Both the position numbers and the translations under genes were made by a program. Positions 1 through 6,608 of a stretch of DNA of 7,307 nucleotides are shown here, one piece after another (position 1 is the stretch's first letter; the number at the start of each line of letters is the position of its first letter). Under the pieces are notes generated by a model. The model was not told where the DNA came from, ran no database searches, and was given only the letters and a program-made list of their open reading frames with translations. Origin of the DNA: a virus (taxonomy: Duplodnaviria > Heunggongvirae > Uroviricota > Caudoviricetes). The stretch lies in IMG/VR virus record IMGVR_UViG_2619619129_000005; one strand, written 5' to 3'.

Positions 1-158
1 ATCTTGTAACAATCAGGCATACCACGGAGCTTGTTTGCTTCAATCCGGGGTGACTCAAGTACTTCAACCAGCTTCTTTTTCAACTGTTCACGTACCGTCG
101 AGCCCAGCTTTCGCCATTCCTTTAGTGCCCGCTCGTCAAAATCCAGAAAATACGCCAT
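1..158 (-). CDS. relE: RelE mRNA-interferase toxin, N-terminal 52 codons only (gene runs off the window start)
   Basis: Reverse complement of 1..158 translates MAYFLDFDERALKEWRKLGSTVREQLKKKLVEVLESPRIEANKLRGMPDCYKI, which matches the RelE N-terminus as I recall it. ATG at 158..156 overlaps the relB stop by one base (TGATG). Absent from the ORF track because no stop lies inside the window. Confidence 0.9.
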   Translation of the reverse strand, partial: MAYFLDFDERALKEWRKLGSTVREQLKKKLVEVLESPRIEANKLRGMPDCYK

Positions 159-397
159 CAGAGTTCATCCAGCGTCACACGTACTGGCTTAGGATTACGA
201 AGCCGTTCTTTCACTATCTCCACAAGTTCAGCATCTTCATCACTCAGGAGTGTCTGTTTGAACGGCAAGCGTTCATTGTCAGCGATATACTCGAGCATGA
301 GACGAAGCGCTTCAGAAGGAGTTACGCCCATTTTTTCAAGCGCGGCGTAAGAACGCGCTTTAAGTTCATCGTCAATACGCAGGTTAATGCTACCCAT
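158..397 (-). CDS. relB: RelB antitoxin (ribbon-helix-helix)
   Basis: 79-aa ORF MGSINLRIDDELKARSYAALEKMGVTPSEALRLMLEYIADNERLPFKQTLLSDEDAELVEIVKERLRNPKPVRVTLDEL, recognised as RelB. ATG at 397..395 with GAGG Shine-Dalgarno (complement of 406..409) 8 nt upstream. Immediately precedes relE. Confidence 0.93.
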   Translation of the reverse strand: MGSINLRIDDELKARSYAALEKMGVTPSEALRLMLEYIADNERLPFKQTLLSDEDAELVEIVKERLRNPKPVRVTLDEL

Positions 398-744: not shown

Positions 745-1065
745 TTAAACGCATTTAAACGTCAGGCGAGCAACGCCATTAACAAGTAAGTGTGTATCAA
801 TATCAGTTCTGACTTCTTTCATAGATTTATTTTGTACCCTACAGAAATCAGAAGCCTTTTTTGTTGCAGTGCCAATAGCGCCTCGTATACGACCTGCAGC
901 AGGAGCAGCTTCTACCTCAGAGAGGTAGTTCCCATTATCCAGTTTTTTGACATCGGACTGATATGTCAGACCCAGGCCTTGAAACTGTGTTTTATCATTT
1001 TGCACAGAGCAACCGCTTAGAAAAGTACCAATTAAAATGGTGGTGGCAATTACTAATGTTTTCAT
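745..1065 (-). CDS. Putative lipoprotein (106 aa)
   Basis: ORF begins MKTLVIATTILIGTFLSGC: hydrophobic signal peptide followed by lipobox L-S-G-C with the invariant Cys, then a hydrophilic mature domain. ATG at 1065..1063, TAA stop at 747..745. Flanking DNA (about 1080..1200) is AT-rich. Not recognised as a named gene. Confidence 0.7.
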   Translation of the reverse strand: MKTLVIATTILIGTFLSGCSVQNDKTQFQGLGLTYQSDVKKLDNGNYLSEVEAAPAAGRIRGAIGTATKKASDFCRVQNKSMKEVRTDIDTHLLVNGVARLTFKCV

Positions 1066-1474: not shown

Positions 1475-1885
1475 TCAATCTTTTTTATCGGGATCAGGCT
1501 TCTTTTTAGGTAACTTCGGGGGCTTAACTTGCTGATGACTTTGCGTTCGGCGCGTAAGCCAGGGATGGTCAGCTTTAGGTTTAACATAGTATTTTGAGCG
1601 TAAATCAATACGGGCATTATCCACTCGTTCATGGACACTCTTTTCATCATCCAGTGGTATAGGCTCCGGGCCATCAACATACTTTTCCCAGCCCAGCGCT
1701 TTCCCGTCATACAGAACGTTAATTTCACCGTCAAAGTTCTCGCATACAGTAACAACCGAATGCCTAAGTCGATATCCCCGGCCCTCACTGCGTACCTGAA
1801 ACGCACTGCTTTTGTACTGGAAAGTGAGATTTTTAGACAGAACGCGCTTCGCCTGTAGGCTGAAGATATAACCCAGTATTATCAA
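1475..1885 (-). CDS. Hypothetical ORF (136 aa) with no ATG; possible gene remnant
   Basis: The translation contains no methionine apart from the TTG-derived first residue (complement of 1883..1885). The middle section (GEINVLYDGKALGWEKYVDG) looks like a real protein; the C-terminus is a Lys/Pro-rich tail (KPPKLPKKKPDPDKKD). May be a C-terminal fragment of a disrupted gene. Confidence 0.3.
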   Translation of the reverse strand: MIILGYIFSLQAKRVLSKNLTFQYKSSAFQVRSEGRGYRLRHSVVTVCENFDGEINVLYDGKALGWEKYVDGPEPIPLDDEKSVHERVDNARIDLRSKYYVKPKADHPWLTRRTQSHQQVKPPKLPKKKPDPDKKD

Positions 1886-2036: not shown

Positions 2037-2459
2037 TCACAGCATCACCTCCTGAAATTCCCCCTGATAAAACGCCAGCGCTCGCTGCATAACCTCACTC
2101 TTCCGGCACTCGCGACAGATTATGTTCTGACGCCTGTCGTAGCGGCGTATTTCTCCGTCAGGTAATGACCTGATAAGGTCCGGATCAACCACAGCCGTTT
2201 TCTTCACCTTTGCCCTTGAGAGTTTTTTGCGGGCGTTTTGCCAGTCCTTACGGGCCTGTTCAGACGGGAATAATCCGCAGCCGGAGTTGTATACATCGCC
2301 ACTGGCTACCAGTTCTCTGGCAAGAACGCTCATCAGATATCTTGTTGCCCCAGTTTTAGCTTCCAGTTGTCGTAACGTCTCGCGCCCACTCTGGCGTACG
2401 AGTTCAACAACCTGCCCTTTAATTTTTTCCCGCTCTTCTTGTGTAAAAACTTTTGCCAC
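2037..2459 (-). CDS. Hypothetical basic phage protein (140 aa), directly downstream of the replication gene
   Basis: ORF MAKVFTQEEREKIKGQVVELVRQSGRETLRQLEAKTGATRYLMSVLARELV..., GTG start at 2459..2457 with AGGAGG (complement of 2464..2469) upstream. Arg/Lys-rich, one CxxC (ICRECRK). No family assigned. Same strand as the replication gene with a 40-bp gap. Confidence 0.55.
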   Translation of the reverse strand: MAKVFTQEEREKIKGQVVELVRQSGRETLRQLEAKTGATRYLMSVLARELVASGDVYNSGCGLFPSEQARKDWQNARKKLSRAKVKKTAVVDPDLIRSLPDGEIRRYDRRQNIICRECRKSEVMQRALAFYQGEFQEVML

Positions 2460-2499
2460 AAGTCCTCCTGAAAATTACCTCATGACCAGAAATTAACAC

Positions 2500-3576
2500 T
2501 TACCCCCTGAAGCCCGGCGGAATTTCGTTATCCGGTTCAGAAATATGATTCACACAACGCTGGTTGTTCGTGCCGCTTACCGGGAGCAACCAGGGGTTCT
2601 CAAAATTCCGGTCCGGTCCAAAAAACGTCGTCGCTCGCTGAACAAATTCCGTTCCCGTTTTCCCGGTAGCCGCCAAGTATCTTGCGTAACGCCTCACGCC
2701 ATCCAGCATGGCTTCTGGTGGCACCCCCTCGCGTAATCTGGCCTTCCAGGCACTGAAAGCGGATTTCTTCGGGTTTGCTCCGGCACGCAACGGGTACTCC
2801 CGCCAGACCTGTTCGAACACATCCGGATAATCCACTCGTCCCACAGACTGCCCGGTGTTTTCCGGGACTACCCGATCGGCTTCCCGCTGAATGGCGGAAT
2901 CGGCTTCGGGCTGCTGCAGTTGGTGTGATTGCTCCGGCCTTGCGGTCATCACCTGCTGCACAGCGCCCGAATCGGCTTTCAGCGCATACGCTGAATCGGC
3001 TTCCGGTGTCGTGCCTGCTGGCTGACCAAGATTGACGGTCTGAACATCCCCTGCCTGGTTCGTGGCGTTTTTTACGCCATGGACCATAGTGTTTTGATCT
3101 TCTTGATCTGTATCTTTATCTGTATCTTTATCTGTCGTGACTCGTCGTGACATGTGCGTGACATTTCGTGACGCGCCGTGACAATCGCCATTTTGTTCCC
3201 GCTTTCTTTCCCTCTCTCGCTGCGCCCTCTTGCGCTCTGCAGGAGATTTTGCGGTTTGCGAAATATTGCCGTTGTCCTCTTTAAGCACCTGGCGTTTTTC
3301 CCATCCAGTGATTAAATCACCATCAAGTACCCGCCCCTGCATCGTCTGCAAAATTGAATCAATTACCTCTTCTGTCACGTCGAGCGCACTTGCCAAATCT
3401 TCTGTCGTGACATCAATGTGACCTCGCGTGACATTTCGTGACGCGCTCACCAGGAGGTGGATATACACTGCCATCACTGTTGCAATTGGCTGCCCTGACA
3501 CTCTGGCAATTGTTCGCCACTTAGGGTCATTTGGCATGTCATGCCATAATCTGAGCCAGGCGTTAGCCATACTCAC
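2500..3576 (-). CDS. Phage replication initiation / replisome-organizer protein (358 aa, lambda O-like role) with the origin inside its coding sequence
   Basis: ATG at 3576..3574 with GAGGTGA Shine-Dalgarno upstream. N-terminus MSMANAWLRLWHDMPNDPKWRTIARVSG is typical of phage initiator DNA-binding domains. A low-complexity acidic/basic linker (ERKRAQRERERKRE, DKDTDKDTD) is encoded by the tandem repeats and iterons. Sits where O-like genes sit, downstream of the cro/cII-like genes. Confidence 0.75.
   Translation of the reverse strand: MSMANAWLRLWHDMPNDPKWRTIARVSGQPIATVMAVYIHLLVSASRNVTRGHIDVTTEDLASALDVTEEVIDSILQTMQGRVLDGDLITGWEKRQVLKEDNGNISQTAKSPAERKRAQRERERKREQNGDCHGASRNVTHMSRRVTTDKDTDKDTDQEDQNTMVHGVKNATNQAGDVQTVNLGQPAGTTPEADSAYALKADSGAVQQVMTARPEQSHQLQQPEADSAIQREADRVVPENTGQSVGRVDYPDVFEQVWREYPLRAGANPKKSAFSAWKARLREGVPPEAMLDGVRRYARYLAATGKTGTEFVQRATTFFGPDRNFENPWLLPVSGTNNQRCVNHISEPDNEIPPGFRG
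3096..3182. repeat. Candidate origin, cluster 1: 12-bp tandem ATCTGTATCTTT x2.5 (3106..3135) followed by five CGTGAC iterons
   Basis: CGTGAC at 3136, 3146, 3157, 3167 and 3177, spaced 10-11 bp (one helical turn). Immediately preceded by an AT-rich hexamer-periodic tandem repeat. Lies inside the replication-initiator gene, as ori-lambda lies inside O. Confidence 0.6.
3374..3446. repeat. Candidate origin, cluster 2: four (C/T)GTGAC iterons plus one inverted copy
   Basis: CGTGAC at 3406, 3427 and 3437, TGTGAC at 3417, spaced 10-11 bp; inverted GTCACG at 3374..3379. The 21-mer GCGTGACATTTCGTGACGCGC is identical at 3426..3446 and 3156..3176. TCTGTCGTGAC is identical at 3131..3141 and 3401..3411. 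Confidence 0.6.
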
Positions 3577-3641: not shown

Positions 3642-4067
3642 TCAATGTACTGCCACAGCATTTCCTGCCGGGCCACCACGGTTCATCTGATTGAAACCGG
3701 CGATTGCCACTGCGACAAAATCATCAGCGTCTCTCACCAGTCGCTCCCGCGTCTCCACCAGCTCCCGAAAATAAGCTGAACTGTGGCTGCGCATTCTGGC
3801 CACCAGCAAAGGTGGCATTGCCTTTTCGATCGCTGGTAACAACGCCTGAATTTTTTCAACTGCATCAGGGGTGTCTTTCTCTACCCAGCGGAAAATTTTC
3901 TGGGTATTGCGAGCCAGGGCTTCCGGATGGCTGTCGTCATACAGTTCCGGGAACGTCATTCCCAGCTCGAAATACGCTTTGGTAATTTTCGCAGCCGGTA
4001 CTTTTTCGCCGTCCGGATGCGCCCAGGCATTCATCGCCATGCGGATGTGTTCATGCTTGATTTTCAT
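3642..4067 (-). CDS. ydaT: YdaT-like protein (141 aa); family once proposed as a toxin, later reported to act as a CII-like regulator
   Basis: ORF MKIKHEHIRMAMNAWAHPDGEKVP... resembles Rac-prophage YdaT as I recall it; length and position (immediately after the Cro-like gene) match. Its ATG (4067..4065) overlaps the upstream gene stop (ATGA), indicating translational coupling. Confidence 0.65.
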   Translation of the reverse strand: MKIKHEHIRMAMNAWAHPDGEKVPAAKITKAYFELGMTFPELYDDSHPEALARNTQKIFRWVEKDTPDAVEKIQALLPAIEKAMPPLLVARMRSHSSAYFRELVETRERLVRDADDFVAVAIAGFNQMNRGGPAGNAVAVH

Positions 4068-4279
4068 GAATCATTCTTTCCTTCGTTCGAGGTGCTATCC
4101 TGCTTCTTGTAAAGTTCTGGGTTGTATTTCAATTCACCGTTAGTAATTTCATCCAGTTCCATTGCGCGAAGTTTGGGAATAACTGCTTTCCACCGCACAA
4201 CAGCCACATGTGAAATTCCAAGAGCCTCAGCTACTAGTCGCTTTTTTTTGAAATAGCGCAGAACATCATCTTTGAACAT
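4064..4279 (-). CDS. Cro-like HTH protein of the YdaS/DicC family (71 aa)
   Basis: ORF MFKDDVLRYFKKKRLVAEALGISHVAVVRWKAVIPKLRAMELDEITNGELKYNPELYKK... with HTH signature (LGISHVAVVRW). ATG at 4279..4277 with AGGAG (complement of 4286..4290) 6 nt upstream. Divergent from the repressor gene. Confidence 0.8.
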   Translation of the reverse strand: MFKDDVLRYFKKKRLVAEALGISHVAVVRWKAVIPKLRAMELDEITNGELKYNPELYKKQDSTSNEGKNDS

Positions 4280-6192: not shown

Positions 6193-6250
6193 TTTCTGGT
6201 GACGTTTGGCGGTATCAGTTTTACTCCGTGACTGCTCTGCCGCCCTTTTT
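6193..6250 (+). ncRNA. dicF: DicF-like small RNA (about 53 nt) with intrinsic terminator
   Basis: TTTCTGGTGACGTTTGGCGGTATCAGTTTTACTCCGTGACTGCTCTGCCGCCC (6193..6245) followed by TTTTT (6246..6250). GGCGG (6209..6213) pairs with CCGCC (6240..6244). The sequence agrees with my recollection of K-12 DicF and sits in the long gap between ydfC and dicB. Exact 5' end is uncertain because it is made by processing. Confidence 0.6.
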
Positions 6251-6419: not shown

Positions 6420-6608
6420 ATGAAAACGTTATTACCAAACGTTAATACGTCTGAAGGTTGTTTTGAAATTGGTGTCACTATCAGTAACCCTGTATTTACT
6501 GAAGATGCCATTAACAAGAGAAAACAAGAACGGGAGCTATTAAATAAAATATGCATTGTTTCAATGCTGGCTCGTTTACGTCTAATGCCAAAAGGATGTG
6601 CACAATGA
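6420..6608 (+). CDS. dicB: Cell-division inhibitor DicB (62 aa)
   Basis: Product MKTLLPNVNTSEGCFEIGVTISNPVFTEDAINKRKQERELLNKICIVSMLARLRLMPKGCAQ matches DicB as I recall it. ATG 6420 with GAGGA (6408..6412) 7 nt upstream. The ORF-track version (from 6315) includes an unlikely 5' extension. Confidence 0.85.
   Translation: MKTLLPNVNTSEGCFEIGVTISNPVFTEDAINKRKQERELLNKICIVSMLARLRLMPKGCAQ

Follow-up and report, generated by a model that had tools for sequence, protein, structure and literature searches.

How does a phage load the replicative helicase when its replication module holds an initiator gene but no gene for a helicase loader? This question is raised by a 7,307-nucleotide (nt) stretch of viral DNA (Caudoviricetes; IMG/VR record IMGVR_UViG_2619619129_000005), hereafter the window, which comes from a lambdoid prophage of Qin/Rac type in Escherichia coli. 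An earlier reading of the letters alone, the original prediction, held that the module lacks a dedicated loader and that its initiator might recruit the host primosome directly. We find that the module is best read as a lambdoid initiator-only module whose initiator would bring in the DnaB-DnaC complex of the host by way of its C-terminal end, and most likely by a tail shared with host DnaT. We put the probability of this reading at roughly 60%. The argument draws on the following elements, given in window coordinates with lengths in amino acids (aa) and with reference to the list of open reading frames (ORFs).

2500-3570, minus strand: initiator gene, 356 aa (ORF list; PHROG 3729).
3271-3570, minus strand: N-terminal module of the initiator, aa 1 to ~100, a putative winged helix of Phage_rep_org_N type and putative origin-binding domain.
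3404-3442, minus strand: iteron cluster I, four GTCAC(G) repeats ~10-11 bp apart (direct-repeat family D1), within the coding sequence of the N-terminal domain.
3134-3183, minus strand: iteron cluster II, five GTCACG repeats with a period of 10-11 bp, in the linker coding sequence (aa 130-146, CHGASRNVTHMSRRVTT).
3091-3135, minus strand: A-rich, strand-asymmetric stretch ACAGATAAAGATACAGATAAAGATACAGATCAAGAAGATCAAAAC, a candidate DNA-unwinding element adjoining iteron cluster II.
2590-2829, minus strand: domain X of the initiator, aa 248-327, with the pattern YPxxFExxWxxYPxRxGxNPKxxAxxAWxAR...GVxRYA...ATGKxGTEFVxQAxTFFGPDxxFxxxW.
2503-2553, minus strand: DnaT-type tail of the initiator, aa 340-356, VNHISEPDNEIPPGFRG (NCBIfam NF002770, PDB chains).
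2460-2499, minus strand: 40-nt spacer between the initiator and DUF977 genes, the site of a loader cassette in sibling phages (blastn against L071, L089 and L050).
2037-2459, minus strand: DUF977 gene, 140 aa (ORF list).

The claim that no P-like or DnaC-like ORF follows the initiator was borne out, as none was returned when the annotated ORFs were scanned against Pfam, NCBIfam and PHROGs. Six-frame tblastn over the whole window with E. coli DnaC, three phage DnaC-like proteins, lambda P and DnaB gave a best E of 0.29, and no DnaC or P homology was found in the 140-aa protein or in an overlooked ORF. For the lambda P-type loader (PF06992) there was no Pfam match, and the best tblastn hit of lambda P in the window had E = 2.5. 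An AAA+ domain (PF01695/PF00308), ~245 aa with a Walker A motif, was not present in any window ORF, with E = 0.29 again the best value among the four DnaC-type tblastn queries. These methods recognize loaders elsewhere: the gene downstream of the initiator in the sibling contig L050 matched PF01695 with E = 2.9e-19, and P-like genes were found after all 81 initiators bearing a second type of tail, described below.

The absence of a loader extends to the relatives of the window. In an intact prophage (L001), the initiator is followed by DUF977, a Mom-like gene, small uncharacterized genes, hokD, DUF968, RusA and Q, and nothing loader-like was found there, including by family scans of the unnamed neighbor genes. 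The complete genome of phage Tritos (46 kb, 56 coding sequences) contains the same initiator-DUF977 pair with no helicase or loader in its annotation. We also sampled 80 IMG/VR contigs encoding the same initiator (≥ 97% identical), and in 74 of them the initiator was directly followed by DUF977 without a loader. Since L001, Tritos and these 74 contigs also lack a loader, its absence is demonstrated and is not an artifact of a degraded prophage. Judged by the Tritos annotation, an initiator and a candidate origin occur without a loader or helicase gene genome-wide, which is the arrangement of an 'initiator-only' replication module, a term that reportedly goes back to Weigel & Seitz in 2006.

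The remaining six of the 80 contigs carry a DnaC-like gene 10 nt past the initiator stop, followed by DUF1627, with DUF977 detected after this cassette in two of the six. When the window was compared by blastn with L071, L089 and L050, homology ran to the initiator stop, broke for 1552 nt, and returned 3 nt before the DUF977 start. In the DNA, the one form has a 1552-nt cassette (DnaC-like plus DUF1627) where the other has a 34-nt spacer. The DnaC-like gene encodes an IstB_IS21/DnaC-type AAA+ protein (PF01695, E = 2.9e-19) that shares 83% identity with Rac YdaV and 47-48% with E. coli DnaC. More distant family members also occur in both states, with P0078 followed by an IstB/DnaC-like gene and P0030 not. 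Given that siblings encode a DnaC paralogue of their own beside this initiator, the loader gene would be an optional extra for which the host protein can serve.

A clean 1.55-kb indel and the existence of a cassette-bearing sibling would also be expected if the loader had simply been lost, such that the loader-less module were a dead remnant of an initiator-DnaC-DUF1627-DUF977 module. The window prophage is indeed degraded, with an insertion sequence (IS) fragment at 1475-1885 and a synteny break at ~2032. We nevertheless consider loss improbable. The loader-less form is in the majority (74/80) and is found in records deposited as complete phage genomes, namely Tritos, Evi, mEp460_ev081, SPN1S and PAT1. 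The initiator ORF, iterons and tail are intact, the protein is 98-99% identical to those of complete-genome phages, and loader-less modules with the same tail recur with several unrelated N-terminal modules.

A second way to supply the missing activity, raised in the original prediction, was that the 140-aa protein might itself be a novel loader in place of DnaC or P. Its favorable position speaks for this, as its gene is the next one after the initiator (+44 nt in 74/80 contigs). However, the protein belongs to PF06163 (DUF977; E = 3.4e-32) and to PHROG 142, 'Ren-like exclusion protein' (E = 3e-46), and its C-terminal NIICRECRKSEVMQRALAFY resembles the lambda Ren C-terminus (local match, E = 7e-6). 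Directly after the replication genes is also where lambda has ren, following O and P. With 140 aa and an N-terminal winged helix, it has neither AAA+ nor P-like features. The decisive point is that DUF977 copies co-occur with DnaC-like loaders: in Rac (YdaU-YdaV-YdaW-LygF), POCJ13 and 75/02 Stx, a copy annotated LygF (66-96% identical) is encoded downstream of a DnaC-like gene, and the two also coexist in IMG/VR contigs. Conversely, the loader-less phages SPN1S, PAT1 and Klebsiella phages with the same initiator tail lack DUF977. A role as loader is therefore highly implausible, and the 140-aa protein is a Ren-like winged-helix accessory (DUF977/LygF). The homologue search for structure modeling returned only relatives ≥ 88% identical, so the model rests on a shallow alignment and its C-terminal 55 residues are of low confidence. 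In the literature, we found no paper on a phage or prophage protein LygF.

These results direct attention to the initiator. Originally taken as a protein of 358 aa, its ORF at 2500-3576 (minus strand) is present as described, but the start is shifted. GTG at 3576, which gives the maximal ORF, falls within the Shine-Dalgarno sequence aGAGGTGAGtATG, and RefSeq relatives use ATG at 3570, resulting in a 1071-nt coding sequence and 356 aa. The whole protein falls in PHROG 3729, 'replication initiation protein' (E = 5.5e-258), is named 'phage replisome organizer' in RefSeq, and shares 98-99% identity with its counterparts in phages Tritos, Evi and vB_EcoS-689R5. Some phage records name such initiators 'primosomal protein I', and the protein occurs in thousands of E. 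coli genomes.

The predicted three-part anatomy was found in full: an N-terminal domain (aa 1 to ~100), a linker of ~145 aa and a conserved C-terminal domain. The linker is first basic, next acidic and last Q/A/P-rich, with the disordered Q/A/P-rich part (~90 residues) directly before domain X. The N-terminal module matched PF09681 and TIGR01714 weakly (E = 0.011-0.016; 15-16 bits versus cut-offs of 23.3 and 49.8), with the full model length covered. PHROG 1408 matched this module alone (E = 1.5e-20), and it reappears with different C-terminal halves (P0069, P0101). The initiator had no Pfam match to Phage_rep_O (PF04492) or Phg_2220_C (PF09524), whereas other initiators with the same tail do.

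Which part of the C-terminal region could recruit a host factor? The earlier suggestion of a DnaT-like role for the C-terminus was right in spirit, but the globular domain it quoted has no significant similarity to DnaT. That domain, domain X, is a small helical domain. In an AlphaFold2 model of aa 226-356, the predicted local distance difference test (pLDDT) score was 94-98 in the helical core and 61-83 in the flanks. Domain X has no Pfam family, as a search of the C-terminal 116 aa at E ≤ 10 returned only a chance match to PhyR_sigma2. It is common, with 4065 cluster representatives at E ≤ 1e-3, and is fused to N-terminal DNA-binding domains as varied as HTH_36, DUF1376, Phage_rep_O, Phage_rep_org_N and DnaD_N. 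Alignment of domain X to the DnaT C-terminal domain gave a non-significant hhalign probability of 13.5%, and the three-helix domain of DnaT that binds single-stranded DNA (ssDNA), PF17948, was not detected in the initiator by Pfam scans or hhalign. BLASTP extensions between DnaT and tail-bearing proteins were driven by the tail. The nearest structural neighbor of domain X is the DnaD-like protein 2zc2, and PHROG labels for the initiator include 'DnaD-like helicase loader'. Separately, domain X proteins of other sources (P0139-P0265) end in further recurrent tails, namely ...DY....P(D/E)W(A/L)K, ...DG.(Y/H)(A/G)F at the very C-terminus and ...GESM..Y..RI. They may be motifs for docking other loaders or hosts.

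It is the last ~17 residues that the initiator has in common with DnaT. The tail VNHISEPDNEIPPGFRG is identical to the E. coli DnaT C-terminus VNTVSEPDSQIPPGFRG at 13 of 17 positions. The NCBIfam DnaT model NF002770 matched the initiator at model positions 156-179 only, its last 24 residues (E = 7.4e-4), and the tail matched PDB chains 6aep (E = 0.003), 2ru8 and 9zbt. The extreme C-terminus carries the DnaT signature (V/I)(S/P)xPDxx(I/V)PxGFRG, which is retained in Buchnera DnaT. Neither the DnaT N-terminal oligomerization domain nor its acidic PriB-binding linker was found in the initiator with the NCBIfam DnaT model, and the N-terminus falls in PHROG 3729/1408 instead. By sequence, then, the initiator appears not to be a member of the DnaT family, and the common part would be the tail only.

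Initiators of Gifsy-1/2, Rac (YdaU), SPN1S, SPN3UB, mEp460_ev081, POCJ13 and several Klebsiella phages also end in this tail. It seems to act as a portable short motif, as the globular domains that precede it are unrelated to one another: domain X, the DnaT domain PF17948, Phg_2220_C or a domain of YdaU type. AlphaFold2 predicted the tail without secondary structure, with a mean pLDDT of ~83, and the segment just before it at ~61 (model md26f49186943, residues 121-130).

To quantify the relationship between tails and loaders, we scanned IMG/VR for ORFs ending in PDxxIPxGFRG-stop (tail-1, the DnaT type), which gave a sample of at least 120 loci. The counts that follow refer to the 120 matches listed, which represent 99 different proteins and five or more types of N-terminal module. 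A DnaC-like gene came next, at +3 or +7 nt, in 71 of the 120, and no loader was present in the other 49, where the next gene was mostly DUF977 at +41. A P-like or DnaB-like next gene was never observed among these matches. We compared them with siblings that share the N-terminal domain of the window initiator or domain X but end in DQNLxxxxDxEEWQ... or, in O157 prophages, ...EALDCPDWCDD (tail-2). The gene next after a tail-2 ORF was lambda-P-like (PF06992) at 81/81 loci. These P-like genes are short, at 175-180 aa (L217:4450-4992, L219:3257-3784, L221:4429-4965), and begin 55-91 nt before the initiator stop, such that the tail-2 codons overlap the P start in another frame.

Domain X and the PF17948 DnaT domain were each seen with both tails. 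It is therefore the tail, and not the globular domain, that co-varies with the loader. Loci without a phage loader made up 49/120 of the tail-1 matches listed versus 0/81 for tail-2, as expected if the partner of the DnaT-type tail is a DnaC-type protein that the host also supplies. Given that, among the matches listed, related phages pair this tail only with DnaC-type loaders, the phage most likely borrows host DnaC-DnaB. These results imply a rule whereby the last ~15-30 residues of modular initiators would predict the loader type and the globular C-terminal domain would not, a rule that we did not find in the literature searched. If it holds, annotators could predict the host-factor dependence of temperate phages from sequence. 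We also considered host taxon as an explanation of tail type. All named tail-1 proteins are from Enterobacterales, yet other tail types also occur there, and taxonomy therefore does not discriminate.

Published work on DnaT offers other partners for the tail. In a 2026 cryogenic electron microscopy (cryo-EM) study of the preprimosome, the DnaT C-terminal domain docks PriA via a small (640 A2), conserved, hydrophobic interface (PMC13377028). The tail might correspondingly dock PriA (or PriB), with the initiator serving as an origin-tethered DnaT substitute that assembles a PriA-type primosome without direct DnaC contact. Sibling initiators that hold the whole DnaT ssDNA-binding domain PF17948 fit such a scheme. 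It leaves unexplained why, among the matches listed, the tail never occurs with P-type loaders while PF17948 does so freely, and the text of the cryo-EM study does not state residues 160-179 to be the PriA interface. We regard PriA docking as the main rival, albeit an unlikely one. No partner for DnaT residues 154-179 is given in Ducos 2026, Liu 2014, a 2014 review or a 2026 review.

The tail might also not dock a partner at all, and instead help the initiator to bind ssDNA or to self-assemble at the opened origin. DnaT 84-179 binds dT30 about threefold better than DnaT 84-153, and with higher cooperativity (Liu et al. 2014, PMC4132743). However, the tail is found behind four or more unrelated globular domains, which speaks against an intramolecular role tied to one domain, and an effect on ssDNA binding or self-assembly does not predict a strict association between tail and loader type. 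We accordingly give this explanation a low probability, below that of PriA docking.

Several considerations weigh against recruitment of host DnaB-DnaC by the tail. The association between tail and loader is confounded by linkage, as the codons for the tail lie directly against the DnaC-like gene or run into the P-like gene. Fisher p-values overstate the independent support because many loci are near-identical, and the tail-1 scan is itself a sample of at least 120 loci. P-like and DnaB-like genes were detected by tblastn with few queries, which very divergent genes could escape. PriA is a live alternative partner since the DnaT C-terminal domain docks it, and the same study, in which DnaB/DnaC recruitment is unexplained, favors the DnaT N-terminal domain as recruiter (PMC13377028), a domain that the phage initiators lack. 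By analogy with DnaT residues 154-179, the tail may contribute to DNA binding. Finally, the window prophage, degraded downstream of DUF977, may itself be inactive.

On balance, we infer that the module depends on host DnaC and that the tail contacts it. A broader and more tentative proposal, which we hold to be possible but short of probable, is that the DnaT tail (xSxPDxxIPxGFRG) is a peptide that docks DnaC, and so DnaB6-DnaC6, that phage tails are interchangeable loader codes, and that host dnaT-dnaC is a domesticated phage pair. If so, the DnaT-type tail would specify DnaC-type loaders, whether of phage or host, and the acidic/Trp tail would specify P-type loaders. As the tail paired with DnaC-type loaders is that of host DnaT, the proposal bears on DnaB-DnaC recruitment in replication restart, where a DnaC-docking tail would answer how PriA-PriB-DnaT hands over to DnaB-DnaC. 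In the host pair dnaT-dnaC (L008:3239-4518), the two genes are ordered as in the phage '+3' modules (L100, L125, L140) and are likewise 2 nt apart. Phage DnaC-like proteins share 46-50% identity with E. coli DnaC, and tail-bearing phage proteins of PF17948 type share 45-63% with the DnaT C-terminal domain in their own C-terminal parts. This common spacing and these identities suggest a shared origin of the dnaTC operon and the initiator-loader pairs of phages. Our literature searches found no paper on DnaT-like proteins in phage replication and none describing the tail as a loader-specific motif.

Where would such an initiator act? Its own gene contains a candidate origin. GTCACG occurs 11 times in the window versus 3.2 expected, and none of 200 shuffles reached 11. 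Tandem Repeats Finder identified cluster II with a period of 10 and 4.9 copies (pattern matches at 3136-3182). The adjoining A-rich stretch, which also codes for TDKDTDKDTDQEDQN, is a 12-bp tandem repeat of 2.9 copies in a region with an AT skew of -0.33. A Salmonella homologue (65% identical) holds repeats at the same positions in its gene. In another homologue, 47% identical (L091:4001-4969), every copy is GTAACG at the same two sites. This change is synonymous, as GTC and GTA both encode valine and Val-Thr is kept. A concerted synonymous change from GTCACG to GTAACG therefore argues for selection at the DNA level and matched specificity, and it reads as the signature of iterons co-evolving with a putative binding domain. 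Iterons plus an AT-rich stretch within the initiator gene are what the lambda O family works with, and we infer origin activity for the intragenic repeats and A-rich stretch of the window.

Taken together, the preferred reading runs as follows. The N-terminal domain would bind the two GTCACG iteron clusters inside its own gene, and this binding would open the A-rich stretch beside them, in the manner of lambda O at ori-lambda. With no phage helicase or loader at hand, the C-terminal end of the initiator would recruit the host DnaB-DnaC complex. The docking element would most likely be the 17-residue tail, acting as a short linear motif specific for DnaC-type loaders. Phage DnaC paralogues (47-48% identical to host DnaC) would be dispensable extras, as the host protein can serve, and the Ren-like accessory encoded by the 140-aa gene would have no part in helicase loading.

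The remainder of the window places this module in its prophage context.

158-397, minus strand: relB.
745-1065, minus strand: lipoprotein ORF, 106 aa, with lipoprotein signal MKTLVIATTILIGTFLSGC.
1475-1885, minus strand: transposase fragment, ISNCY/IS1202-like (ISEsa1), C-terminal part (NCBIfam E = 1.7e-6; annotated in NCTC9699).
3642-4067, minus strand: YdaT/cII-like gene.
4064-4279, minus strand: cro.
Plus strand: cI/S24 repressor, ydfA, ydfB, ydfC, DicF RNA, dicB and ydfD.
6194-6245, plus strand: DicF antisense RNA (Rfam RF00039, 76.7 bits).

DicF lies between ydfC and dicB (about 6420-6608), and the same order is found in Qin and phage Tritos. The transposase fragment sits directly downstream of the DUF977 gene, and synteny with relatives stops beside it, at about 2032. 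Most matching E. coli genomes align to the window only from this point rightwards, which implies that the prophage was rearranged just past DUF977; the genes usual after DUF977 were replaced in the window. The 106-aa lipoprotein ORF had no Pfam family in the Pfam scan, sits in a patch of low guanine-cytosine (GC) content (37-41% GC), and was not present in the intact relatives examined. It looks like a moron or insertion. In the loader-less phages Tritos (L003:33876-35210) and mEp460_ev081 (L093:3940-5289), a gene for a ~445-aa protein lies on the opposite strand just past DUF977. The Tritos protein has an FRG domain (PF08867, E = 1e-21). The window has no such gene, which could be a moron or serve in defense.

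Among known systems, the closest in layout is lambda O/ori/P. In both, the initiator gene follows cI-cro-cII, the origin (a candidate one in the window) lies within the initiator gene, with iterons and then an AT-rich region, and a ren-like gene comes next. The division of labor would also be the same, with DNA-binding specificity in the N-terminal half of lambda O and its C-terminal end coupled to the loader. In contrast, the window initiator has no Phage_rep_O or Phg_2220_C match, has no P gene beside it, and ends in a DnaT-type tail. The lambda ori has four 18-bp iterons, whereas the window has iterons with a 6-bp core in two clusters. By analogy, the module would thus work like lambda O/ori without being a member of the O family.

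E. coli DnaT shares the tail motif xVSxPDxxIPxGFRG (13/17), and sibling phages place a DnaC-type gene at the 2-nt gap of dnaT-dnaC. Unlike DnaT, the initiator has no oligomerization domain or PriB-binding acidic linker and has a predicted origin-binding domain. A published precedent for fusing O-like and DnaT C-terminal parts beside a loader gene is DopC-DopE of Cellvibrionales and Oceanospirillales, in which an O-like HTH_36 N-terminus is joined to a DnaT C-terminal motif (HHpred, 2ru8) (Brezellec et al. 2017, PMC5509034). DopC differs in that it is chromosomal, has no iterons, has the P-like partner DopE, and carries the DnaT C-terminal domain, whereas the window has domain X and the tail only. 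Rac YdaU-YdaV(-YdaW-LygF), Gifsy-1/2, SPN3UB and POCJ13 gp16-gp17 have the same tail as the window initiator. POCJ13 gp16 also has domain X in common with it (64% identity), and both Rac and POCJ13 carry the same DUF977/LygF gene downstream. All four differ from the window in having their own DnaC-like loader directly after the initiator and N-terminal modules of DUF1376 or HTH_36 type.

Firmicute DnaD and SPP1 G38P may resemble the window initiator, given its weak N-terminal likeness to Phage_rep_org_N and, for domain X, the neighbor 2zc2. Unlike the window, SPP1 has genes for a loader (G39P) and a helicase (G40P) of its own. A missing loader is in itself nothing unusual, as phages and plasmids are well known to depend on host DnaB-DnaC. 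The module is of a common and known kind, to which our comparisons add a proposed docking mechanism.

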